A DNA stretch of 64,000 nucleotides from an uncultured Alphaproteobacteria bacterium (GTDB lineage: Bacteria > Pseudomonadota > Alphaproteobacteria > Rhizobiales > Aestuariivirgaceae), in contig CAWFWW010000004.1 of NCBI GenBank assembly GCA_963819615.1, positions 573,705-637,704 of the forward strand, read 5' to 3'. The notes under the pieces are model-generated. The model ran no database searches. It was not told the DNA's origin and was given only the letters and a program-made list of their open reading frames with translations. This document shows, in pieces, positions 17,525 through 23,309 of the stretch. Numbering within the stretch: position 1 is the first letter of the stretch; the number at the start of each line of letters is the position of its first letter. Position numbers and translations under genes: made by a program.

Positions 17525-18976
17525 TTAGTTAAGACGAGGTGACCAGGCCGGATCCGAGGCAAACCCAGGCGTTTCGATCTTCCGCTCATTATAGCCTGAA
17601 ATATCAACGCTATAGAGCTGCGGCCCGCCATTTTCGCCCGGCGTATCGCGGAAAAACATGACGACCCGGCTGTTCGGCGACCACGTAGGCCCTTCATTAT
17701 GGAACCCTTCCGTCAAAATTCGCTCGCCCGATCCATCCGGCGCCATCACGCCAATTGCAAATTTTCCGCCCGCCTGTTTGGTGAAAGCAATCCACTTTCC
17801 ATCTGGCGACCATACAGGCGTTGAATAGCGGCCACTGCCGAAACTGATGCGATTCTGGCCAGATCCATCAGCCCCCATCACATAGATCTGCTGCGCGCCG
17901 CCACGGTCAGACTCGAACGCAACCTGTGCACCATCCGGCGAAAAACTGGGTGCGGTGTTGATGGCCGGCGTCTCGGTGAGCTGCCGCAATTGCCGCGAAC
18001 GCAGATCAAGTTCGAAAATATTCGAGTTGCGTCCGTCATCGCTTTGCAAGCTCATCACAACGCTCTGGCCATCTGGCGAATAGCGCGGCGCAAAGCTCAT
18101 GTTCGGAAAATCGCCGACGATTTCTTTCTGCTGTGTTTCAATGTTGTAAATGTAAACCCGTGGCACGCCGCTGCCGAACGACATGAAGGTAAGTTCAAGC
18201 GATGTCGGCGAAAACCGGGGCGTCAGCAAAAGATCGCCACTCACTGGCAATGTGCGCGGATTGAATCCATCCTGATCCATGATCGCGAGTTTCTTTTCGC
18301 GCTTGTCCTTTGGGCCAGACTCATTGATGAACACGATGCGTGTGTCAAAATATCCTTCGTAGCCCGTGAGCTCCTTGTAGATCATGTCGGCGATGCGATG
18401 CGCAATCCGCCGCGCATTTTTGGGACTCGCTGCAAAAGTCTGCCCGGCGCGCATGGTTTGAGCATTGACGTCATAAAGCTTGAACGACACCTGTATCTTG
18501 CCGCCAACGGCGACCGCTTGCCCCACGACCAACGCCTTGGCCTGCACCTGCCGCCAGTCGCCATACCGTGGCTCCTGCTCGAAATTCGTGACTTGCTCGA
18601 TGAACGAATCCTGCGGCAACGGCGCGAAATAACCTGTGCTGCCAAGATCGTTGCTGATGACCCCGGCAACAGTCTGCGCCACTTCGCTCGCCTCACCATC
18701 CGCAATGAACGGCGCAATCGCGATAGGCAAAGGATCAATCTGCCCGCCTTGCACGGTGCCTTTGAGTTGAGCCTGGGCGGTGGAGATCAGCGATACCAGA
18801 AAAAACACGCTGGCGATCACCCCAACAACTCCTCCCCGCCCTTGAGGGCGGGGTCGGGGGCGGGTGTCAGCCAAAAAGAAACTCATCCAAGCGCCAGCAA
18901 ATGCGGCTGACACCCACCCCTGCCCCGCCCTCAAGGGCGGGTTGCATTTCAAACAATTCTTCATGGCTATCATCAT
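17525..18976 (-). CDS. tolB: TolB beta-propeller periplasmic protein; start uncertain because a palindromic element lies in the signal region
   Basis: PIAI, AHRIADMIY, DTRIVF and repeated PxFSPDG/PxWSP blades. Confidence 0.96.
   Translation of the reverse strand: MMIAMKNCLKCNPPLRAGQGWVSAAFAGAWMSFFLADTRPRPRPQGRGGVVGVIASVFFLVSLISTAQAQLKGTVQGGQIDPLPIAIAPFIADGEASEVAQTVAGVISNDLGSTGYFAPLPQDSFIEQVTNFEQEPRYGDWRQVQAKALVVGQAVAVGGKIQVSFKLYDVNAQTMRAGQTFAASPKNARRIAHRIADMIYKELTGYEGYFDTRIVFINESGPKDKREKKLAIMDQDGFNPRTLPVSGDLLLTPRFSPTSLELTFMSFGSGVPRVYIYNIETQQKEIVGDFPNMSFAPRYSPDGQSVVMSLQSDDGRNSNIFELDLRSRQLRQLTETPAINTAPSFSPDGAQVAFESDRGGAQQIYVMGADGSGQNRISFGSGRYSTPVWSPDGKWIAFTKQAGGKFAIGVMAPDGSGERILTEGFHNEGPTWSPNSRVVMFFRDTPGENGGPQLYSVDISGYNERKIETPGFASDPAWSPRLN
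18834..18941. repeat. REPIN-like element (family D) inside the tolB 5' region
   Basis: Inverted arms CCCCGCCCTTGAGGGCGGGG..GGGTGTCAGCC / GGCTGACACCC..CCCCGCCCTCAAGGGCGGG; related copy in opposite orientation at 22729-22832. Confidence 0.85.
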
Positions 18977-19926
18977 CAGCGGGACATCATGTTGGGGTTG
19001 AAATCAAGCACGACAGTTTTCCACATGTCGTATTTGTCGGGAGGAAGCTCATAAGGCTCGCAGCCTTTGACCGCAGCAACACCAGCCGCAGCTGTGGCTG
19101 CATAGATTGGATCAGAATAGGACTGCTCAGGCTGAACTGAAGTCACGGTGCCATCGTGAGCAAGGCTGAAACTGATCGGCACGGTAATGTCTGCGTCCCG
19201 CGCGGCAGGTGGAACCGTGAAACACTGTTTGACGCGGGCCACCAGCGCCTCAATCAGCGTTGCCGAAACACTGGCGTCCGCCCCCGCCATCGCCTTCTCA
19301 GCCTTCTTCGGCGAACCAGCTTCCTTGGAATTCACCTGCGTCGTGCGCTCGCCATCTTCCTTGTTGAGGAAGGCCGCAATGTCGTCGAGCTTCAATTCTT
19401 TTTTCTTTTTCTCGGCCAGTTTCTTCTTCTCTTCAGCTTTCTTTTTTTCGTCAGCCTTTTTCTTTTCGTCGGCTTTCTTCTGTTCCTCAGCCTTCTTCTG
19501 CTCGTCAGCTTTCTTTTTCTCGGCCTCTTGCAGGGCAATGAGTTCCTTCAAAGGATCAGAATCGAGCGGCTTTTCCTCAACCTTCTTCGGTTCCTCTTTT
19601 TTGGGCTCTTCCTTTTTCGGTTCCGGCGGCTTCGGCGGCTCTGGTGCCACAGGCTCCTTCATCGCGGTTTTGACTTCTTCCGAAACTTTGGGAGCCGGCG
19701 GCGTCTCCTTCACTACTTCCATCTTCTTCGGCGCGGGCTTTGCCGTCTCCGGAACATCATCTGTCGTTGCCGCAAGCCGCTTCGAGTCATCCGTGATCTG
19801 GCTGATATCAACTTCAATCGCATTGACCGGTGGCGCCTTCAGCGCATTGCTCGAAGGGATGCTGAACAGTGCCAGAGCCAATATGGCCCCGTGGAAAACC
19901 GTCGAAAGGAGGACGCTTTTCTTCAT
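18976..19926 (-). CDS. tolA: TolA cell envelope integrity protein
   Basis: N-terminal TM with the SxxxH motif, Pro/Lys/Glu-rich stalk (KKADE repeats) and TonB-C-like domain. Confidence 0.9.
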   Translation of the reverse strand: MKKSVLLSTVFHGAILALALFSIPSSNALKAPPVNAIEVDISQITDDSKRLAATTDDVPETAKPAPKKMEVVKETPPAPKVSEEVKTAMKEPVAPEPPKPPEPKKEEPKKEEPKKVEEKPLDSDPLKELIALQEAEKKKADEQKKAEEQKKADEKKKADEKKKAEEKKKLAEKKKKELKLDDIAAFLNKEDGERTTQVNSKEAGSPKKAEKAMAGADASVSATLIEALVARVKQCFTVPPAARDADITVPISFSLAHDGTVTSVQPEQSYSDPIYAATAAAGVAAVKGCEPYELPPDKYDMWKTVVLDFNPNMMSR

Positions 19927-22687: not shown

Positions 22688-22728
22688 GGACTACTTCCCC
22701 CTCCTCCTGGCGGGGATCAACAAACTCT

Positions 22729-22832
22729 CCCCTCCCTTGAGGGAGGGGTAGGGGTGGGTGTCAGCCCCAAGTGAGATCGAACTTCCATTGCGTGGCTGGC
22801 ACCCGCCCCCGGCCCCGCCCTCAAGGGCAGGG
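22729..22832. repeat. REPIN-like element (family D) upstream of ruvB
   Basis: Inverted arms matching the tolB element in reverse orientation. Confidence 0.8.
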
Positions 22833-22848
22833 AGCTGAACAAACACAC

Positions 22849-23309
22849 TCATCCCGCCGCCAGCTCCTTCAGCGCCGCACGGATCAATTTCTCCGTGGAC
22901 TGACTAAATTTCTTCCCCCTCCCCCCTGTGGGGAGGGCCGGGGTGGGGGTCGGGTGATCTCGCAGAATAAAGTTCATTCCCTTTCTGCCAAGACGGAGCG
23001 ACCCCCACCCTAACCCTCCCCACAAGGGGGAGGGAATGTTCCTTGCAATCCTCATCCCACCGCCAGCTCCTTCAGCGCCGCGCGGATCAATTTCTCCGTG
23101 GGCTGACTAAATTTCTTCCCCCTCCCCCCTGTGGGGAGGGCCGGGGTGGGGGTCGGGTGATCTCGCAGAATAAAATTCATTCCCACTCTGAAAAGCCAAA
23201 GCAACCCCCACCCTAACCCTCCCCACAAGGGGGAGGGAATGCTATTTCCAAACCTCATCCCGCCGCCAGCTCCTTCAGCGCCGCGCGGATCAATTTCTCC
23301 GTGGGCTGA
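22849..23309 (-). repeat. 203-bp tandem repeat: three copies of the last 55 bp of ruvA separated by two family-A REPINs
   Basis: ruvA tail at 22849-22903, 23052-23106 and 23255-23309; the two intervening 148-bp segments align without gaps. Confidence 0.92.

Follow-up and report, generated by a model that had tools for sequence, protein, structure and literature searches.

The window, the whole 64,000-nucleotide stretch of DNA analysed here, carries the genes ruvA-ruvB-ybgC-tolQ-tolR-tolA-tolB in this order on its minus strand, as read from the open reading frame list. The tolA stop codon and the first ATG of the tolB frame have one base in common (TGATG, with the shared A at 18976), and a stop/start overlap of tolA and tolB was also present in lineages L245, L001, L244, L249, L259, L090, L256 and L258. 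tolB is a single-copy gene, with one TolB match in the genome (G000), and Pfam TolB_N and PD40 domains were found from residue 75 of the frame onward. A palindromic element lies between the first tolB codons and the hydrophobic core of the signal peptide, and the features of this region are as follows.

18976-19926, minus strand: tolA, with its TGA stop at 18978-18976 (open reading frame list and sequence)
17525-18976, minus strand: tolB open frame, 483 codons counted from its first ATG (ATG1)
18941-18976, minus strand: tolB leader, codons 1-12 (MMIAMKNCLKCN; sequence and alignment by eye)
18905-18941, minus strand: 5′ arm of the element, B-type, CCCGCCCTTGAGGGCGGGGCAGGGGTGGGTGTCAGCC, translating as PPLRAGQGWVSA (repeat search and nhmmer match to C4:592606-592645)
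18873-18904, minus strand: loop of 32 nt, unique to the tolB copy, translating as AFAGAWMSFFL
18832-18872, minus strand: 3′ arm, A-type, GGCTGACACCCGCCCCCGACCCCGCCCTCAAGGGCGGGGAG, translating as ADTRPRPRPQGRG (repeat search and nhmmer)
18829-18834, minus strand: GAGGAG, a Shine-Dalgarno-like sequence at the foot of the stem
18818-18820, minus strand: GTG, codon 53, a rival start that would yield MIASVFFLVSLISTAQA, which has no charged n-region
18770-18829, minus strand: hydrophobic core of the signal peptide and AQA cleavage motif, codons 50-69 (read from the sequence)

The element consists of two inverted arms of 37-41 nt flanking the 32-nt loop, and it starts 12 codons past the ATG at the tolA stop. 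The sub-hairpin CCCGCCCTTGAGGGCGGG recurs in both arms. The palindrome proper in the 3′ arm spans 18835-18872, and the repeat unit reaches 18832. The predicted fold of the tolB-sense RNA has an energy of -91.9 kcal/mol (z = -6.5), a stability matched by no sequence among 200 shuffles. The TolB frame is stop-free across the element on the minus strand, reading NPPLRAGQGWVSAAFAGAWMSFFLADTRPRPRPQGRGG and then VVGVIASVFFLVSLISTAQA|QLKG. Cleavage is predicted at AQA|Q after codon 69 (18772-18770), which places the start of mature TolB at 18769 (QLKG), where the mature N-termini of relatives also align. When 18941-18834 (108 nt) was deleted in silico, the frame was preserved and the remaining MMIAMKNCLKC-K-GVVGVIASVFFLVSLISTAQA formed a normal signal peptide. 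The original prediction of an in-frame palindrome of about 108 bp in the TolB signal peptide was therefore confirmed in its arms, its open frame and its clean deletion. The alignment of other copies, both genomic and from metagenome contigs, runs from 18832/18833 to 18941, so the repeat unit is taken to be 110-111 nt long, with a 3′ end that partly overlaps ancestral coding sequence.

A search of Rfam 15 gave no match at the gathering score. The best match was to che1 RNA (39.8 bits, below the cut-off of 54.1; window positions 18811-18926, minus strand), and the others were likewise sub-threshold and of the generic long-hairpin type; the che1 match probably reflects a generic GC-rich hairpin. 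We looked for a sigma-70-like site and for a T-run after the long hairpin in the tolB sense and found neither. The only candidates picked up, a sub-hairpin on the opposite strand and a weak stem in the core, were close to chance level, and a role of the element as a terminator or promoter was rejected for want of a fitting signal. In five public runs containing the organism, no read joined the two flanks as expected of an empty allele in the population; contigs of these runs break at the element arms, and one 94-nt unitig spans the loop. A search for RNA runs found none.

Iterated nhmmer searches of the 4.3-Mb genome recovered 55 arms of this repeat family (family 1) at 32 loci. A strict arm pattern gave 19 matches, compared with 0 for the reversed control, and was present in 7 of 151 species of the genus. 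Twelve of the loci are convergent doublets that combine an A-type arm (..GGGGTCGGGGGCGGGTGTCAGCC) with a B-type arm (..GGGGCAGGGGTGGGTGTCAGCC), enclosing loops of 17-99 nt with unrelated sequences; the remaining loci are divergent pairs or single arms. The copies are mostly intergenic and often lie 4-41 nt upstream of a gene start. When a random frame of a family-1 doublet was considered, it was stop-free in 25 of 72 cases. The related intergenic element that had been expected at 22729-22832 was found, with slightly wider limits, as a second doublet upstream of ruvB:

22728-22833, no strand assigned: family-1 doublet, intergenic (C4:596432-596537)

Two tandem 68-aa open reading frames between ruvA and ruvB (window positions 22849-23258) adjoin this doublet and end in the C-terminal peptide of RuvA (..EKLIRAALKELA.G). 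At C4:1038738-1038929 of G000, a GNAT-type gene has its ATG directly next to an arm end (GGGAGAG), and the arm has been tandemly duplicated together with the first codons.

The name REPIN, under which the element was first described, was not supported. The loops of the copies are unrelated, and none of the Y1-transposase (PF01797) genes of the genome, both of which were checked as candidate RAYTs, is flanked by family-1 arms; the nearest arm to the one on C4 is 1.1 kb away, beyond another open reading frame. A RAYT link of family 1 was therefore rejected, and REP or BIME-like doublet is a better fitting term. The arm consensus CTCCCCGCCCTTGAGGGCGGGGTCGGGGGCGGGTGTCAGCC also lacks a GTAG or CGTC end tag. 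The other gene, a RAYT-like Y1 transposase at C22:46721-47467 (locus L137), is flanked by its own, different REP (TTATTTCGGTGACAGTGCATTTAA).

A genome-wide search for further in-frame copies, as the original prediction had proposed, found them in three other genes, and these copies are clearly translated. A second REP family, the one found at tolB of the close relative G132, also has in-frame arms in long conserved genes. The copies are listed below by genomic contig.

C12:241000-241103, minus strand: family-1 doublet in truB (C12:240570-241637), in frame, 35 aa
C7:119803-119906, minus strand: family-1 doublet in the 2-oxoacid dehydrogenase E2 acyltransferase gene (C7:118893-120158), in frame, 35 aa
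C12:29519-29558, strand not given: single family-1 arm in an RlmL-like methylase gene, in frame, 12-14 aa
C10:9383-9427: second-family arm in polA, in frame
C4:27160-27197: second-family arm in an acyl-CoA synthetase gene, in frame
C6:180031-180070: second-family arm in an RM methylase gene, in frame
C4:702476-702591: second-family doublet in a copper amine oxidase gene (C4:702286-704562), in frame

The TruB insertion falls in a surface beta-turn between residues aligned to positions 156 and 166 of E. coli TruB, and this position has no insertion in seven relatives, two of which are G132 and G081, and holds a different element in G155. The E2 copy sits in a linker with the lipoyl and E3-binding domains on either side. 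It is orthologous in G081 and G132, where the stems have been held by compensatory changes and the loops have diverged; in G155 and G055 the same linker site carries other elements. The arm in the RlmL-like methylase lies within the methyltransferase domain, and its site is empty in five relatives. The doublet in the copper amine oxidase is directly before the signal-peptide core with no ATG between, a parallel to the tolB case, and the copper amine oxidases of relatives have short MK.. signals.

The tolA-tolB junction was compared among relatives. Among GTDB species representatives there was one close relative, G132 (the same as L001 in sequence; TolB 93%), and further lineages were gathered through protein-cluster and contig look-ups; JGI metagenome contigs held no closer relative above 75% identity. 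An orthologous family-1 copy was found in L245, whose mature tolB differs from that of the window by 13% at the nucleotide level. G132 has a different palindromic element of 150 nt at the same spot of tolB, also in frame. L247 and L248 carry a PALVAGIH..FPAFAGMT element, L244 a single ARLKRAMT hairpin and L249 two of these, L259 an SFPRRRE..VPAFAG doublet, and L090 (G015) a VIPAKAGI element. In total, at least seven separate insertions of at least six repeat families have occurred at this spot, where the tolB start overlaps the tolA stop.

The tolB site was empty in L256 and L257 (TolB 88% identical), with signals of 31-32 aa, so the empty site asked of the tolB 5′ ends of relatives does exist. 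The L256 signal, MITHKISVERYLAAVF..ANA, begins on the tolA stop (ATGA overlap) and contains no later in-frame ATG or GTG; its only other start-type codon is a TTG at codon 18, from which about 13 residues would remain. The L257 signal, MMIPLPRFQANLFRLLF..AQA, has the same M-M-I at the tolA-tolB junction, where the tolA stop is cut by the contig edge. In the window, the leader offers in-frame starts at 18976-18974 (ATG1), 18973-18971 (ATG2) and 18964-18962 (ATG5). By eye, the leader codons C-N-P align in frame with L-N-P in the leaders of L244 and L003, and the Arg before the core aligns with V-E-R of L256 and L244. The empty-site signals that start at the tolA stop, together with the leader and Arg alignments, place the insertion within what was ancestrally coding sequence for the signal peptide, after the first dozen codons and before the pre-core Arg. 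The earlier reading as an in-frame insertion into the TolB signal peptide is upheld, with L256 and L257 placing the ancestral start upstream.

Two other ideas about this region lost ground in the comparison. An out-of-frame ATG in GAAATGCAA (18933-18931) was considered as the ancestral start from its similarity to L002, and was dropped because L003, L244 and L256 show the in-frame C-N-P to be the ancestral L-N-P. The idea that G132 tolB holds a remnant of a family-1 arm end lost support, since in lineages with other elements this purine tract belongs to the ancestral coding sequence.

In the branch where the tolB start overlaps the tolA stop, the insertions have kept the frame. For the seven insertion states (the window genome with L245, G132/L001, L247, L244, L249, L259 and L090), the TolB frame contained 0 stops from the end of tolA up to the mature protein, and the other two frames 0-10. 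Another branch of the genus has a true tolA-tolB spacer, with a canonical ATG and a basic n-region after the element, and in two of its three insertions (L127 and L134) the frame of that ATG contains stops. Open frames in the overlap branch versus stops in the spacer branch are what selection for the upstream start predicts.

Comparison with the orthologous copy of L245 showed that the frame has stayed open through 16 substitutions, and that the sole indel in the leader is 3 nt long. The substitutions in codons 1-48 were distributed over codon positions 1, 2 and 3 as 4, 7 and 5, with no third-position excess; in codons 49-69, which encode the hydrophobic core, the corresponding numbers were 1, 0 and 4. 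Divergence was 10% over leader and element together, compared with 33% at third positions of tolB; the 3′ arm had no change in 34 nt, and one stem pair had a compensatory change. This low divergence, the unchanged arm and the compensatory pair point to the nucleotide sequence or the hairpin that it forms as DNA or RNA, and not to the peptide, as the object of the constraint.

On present sequence comparisons, we give a probability of roughly 0.65 to the reading that the element is translated from the tolA-overlapping start as a long n-region that signal peptidase removes. We infer continued use of the upstream start, followed by export and cleavage of the long leader; mixed use of several tolB starts is possible. 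A Lys or Arg precedes the core in the signal of every relative, and an in-frame Arg is found 1-3 residues before the core in all lineages. The form from the upstream start has this Arg/Lys, the core VVGVIASVFFLVSLIS and AQA|QLKG, as does a form from the ATG in the loop (M31), whereas the form from the GTG has no charge. A Sec signal peptide of 69 residues with a moderately hydrophobic stretch is unusual. In the window genome a single Arg stands where some members of the genus have RR. Twin-arginine-like TolB signals were seen in L084, L130, P0017, P0019 and P0020 (NRRNLL, SRRTFV, SRRRLI, TRRRFV), which suggests Tat-type TolB export in some species of the genus.

The start calls on record differ: the product is 431 aa long, from the GTG, for the window contig and L245, and has the long form for G132 and for the sister strain P0009, whose 483-aa TolB differs by one residue. 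Shine-Dalgarno statistics are a weak means of deciding on the tolB start, since starts called from the longest ORF are noisy (a site in 8.9%) and the arm end itself resembles a Shine-Dalgarno sequence.

It is unlikely, in our judgement, that the TolB start has moved to the GTG at 18820-18818 by way of GAGGAG, giving a 17-residue signal (MIASVFFLVSLISTAQA) and leaving the element in an untranslated tolA-tolB spacer or only incidentally crossed; the hairpin would then be an intercistronic RNA element affecting stability or coupling. With GAGGAG 8 nt upstream, the GTG has the look of a textbook initiation site, and just 0.9% of the internal in-frame start-type codons of the genome have such a site. 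The GTG and the purine-rich tract are preserved in L245 and G132, the annotation on record uses this start, and codon-position bias is absent before codon 49. The arrangement would also resemble that of the other family-1 copies 4-41 nt upstream of gene starts, including the arm end that serves as the ribosome-binding site of the GNAT gene, and a downstream start is what the literature expects for N-terminal REPs (PMC3733652). However, the purine tract belongs to the ancestral coding sequence (V-E-R-R-G in L244, where GAGGAG matches the E-R-R-G codons of GAGCGGAGAGG, and V-E-R in the empty-site L256) and thus not a newly evolved ribosome-binding site. No start codon exists at the corresponding position in L244, L249 or L256, the resulting signal would lack Lys and Arg, unlike those of all relatives, and the frame that is open back to the tolA-stop ATG in every insertion would be left unexplained.

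A start at the in-frame loop ATG (M31, 18886-18884; MSFFLAD), the alternative named in the original prediction, with a 39-residue signal made of MSFFLADTRPRPRPQGRGG and the core and the 3′ arm alone translated, is improbable: although the ATG is conserved in L245 with its surroundings (GCTGGCGCYTGGATGAGTTTCTT) nearly unchanged, the loop is single-stranded in the predicted fold, the product would have a well-charged n-region, and element-borne ATGs in L244 and L247 would likewise give canonical signals (MTVERRG..., MTRVLG...), there is no upstream Shine-Dalgarno sequence, only about 11 nt of loop separate the ATG from the stem, the element of G132 lacks an in-frame ATG, and the open frame upstream of the loop would again be unexplained.

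If the element is translated from the tolA-overlapping start, the following sequence of events may be proposed. A doublet of inverted REP-type arms with a copy-specific loop has inserted about 12 codons after the start that overlaps the tolA stop. Ribosomes ending tolA would most likely re-initiate at the overlapping ATG and read through the hairpin, and the product would be a pre-TolB with a 69-residue signal peptide, in which 36 repeat-encoded residues (PPLRAGQGWVSAAFAGAWMSFFLADTRPRPRPQGRG) part the old N-terminus from the core and the repeat arginines adjoin the core. Signal peptidase would cut at AQA|Q and take off the whole leader; mature TolB would thus be unchanged, which would make the spot unusually tolerant of insertions. 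With the tolB start lying on the tolA stop, the two genes have no non-coding spacer, and hairpin repeats that arrive between them would land in the n-region. The n-region makes few demands on sequence and is removed once the protein has been exported, so in-frame, stop-free insertions there would survive and the spot would become occupied repeatedly.

At both sites for which an empty allele is available, one end of the element resembles its target (truB target CACCTCGCC and arm end CTCCTCGCC; tolB target GAGCGGAGAGG and arm end AGGGCGGGGAGG), a resemblance that hints at microhomology during insertion (n = 2 sites). A more far-reaching reading, which we hold to be rather doubtful, is that the TolB n-region is the only dock for hairpin repeats, which would enter by microhomology, be kept only when in frame and replace one another by family, and that the translated hairpin would set the tolA:tolB translation ratio. 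Among the promoter-like and terminator-like signals looked for, none fits a tuning of tolB expression relative to tolA.

Rickettsia palindromic elements (RPEs; Ogata et al. 2000, 2002) are described in PMC10969869 and PMC3733652 as palindromic repeats lying in frame inside genes. Like RPEs, the repeats studied here are multi-copy, about 100-150 bp long and in frame in conserved housekeeping genes, truB included; they are placed at loops and linkers, keep the frame, and persist and decay as old copies. Unlike RPEs, they reside in a free-living host of Hyphomicrobiales type (4.3 Mb, 55% GC) and not in the reduced genome of an intracellular member of the Rickettsiales. Family 1 also differs in its unit, a doublet that is rich in GC and has REP-like arms of 41 nt and a loop that is not conserved, and in the mostly intergenic position of its copies; at tolB, the insertion is in a signal peptide that is cleaved off and not in a mature protein. 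Family 1 is classed here as working like RPEs by its behaviour, not as one of them by descent. The copies in truB, the E2 acyltransferase and the RlmL-like methylase bear out the analogy that the original prediction had drawn; the in-frame insertion into the ancestral signal also stood, a repeat peptide that still forms the n-region today is probable, and the name REPIN fell.

Intragenic REPs are known in several free-living bacteria, with truB and the DNA polymerase I gene as recurrent hosts (PMC3733652; PMC10969869 for RPEs). According to Di Nocera et al. 2013 (PMC3733652), ORF-internal REPs are a minority and encode 14-35 residues, and those at the N-termini of ORFs are ambiguous, as translation may start downstream; most REPs at ORF 5′ ends have been judged non-coding in published surveys (PMC3733652). 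Family 1 shares with the REPs and REP dimers of that work its short palindromic units, which often form inverted pairs and lie mostly between unidirectional or convergent genes. In contrast to those REPs, its arms have no GTAG or CGTC end tag, the ancestral start of tolB is placed upstream by relatives with an empty site, and the same codon-level site has been taken by at least six families in close relatives. The inverted A and B arms, the long hairpin and the dozens of copies recall REPINs with RAYT (Bertels and Rainey 2011) and the BIMEs of E. coli, whereas the unrelated loops of 17-99 nt, with no conserved spacer, and the Y1-transposase genes, one of which is flanked by a different REP and neither by family 1, set it apart from REPINs.

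Rickettsia is the best-known source of in-frame palindromic repeats, and their cataloguing in free-living bacteria has been brief. Copies at the 5′ ends of genes are commonly written off as annotation artefacts. An ancestral start placed upstream by empty-site relatives, together with seven frame-keeping insertions, argues that the tolB 5′ copy was tolerated as coding sequence. RPE-like intragenic REPs, which persist within genes at places where added peptide is harmless, were already known, and what is added here is modest, namely the location in a signal peptide and a comparative series at one site. The difference in start calls among assemblies of the same species (431 versus 483 aa) is a warning for the annotation of repeat-decorated genes. 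If the start has moved to the GTG, repeat insertion would be driving start-codon turnover in an essential envelope gene. The translated reading identifies the cleaved signal peptide as a permissive insertion site, and, should the TolB n-region indeed act as a dock, it would be both a neutral dock for mobile hairpins and a coupling valve.
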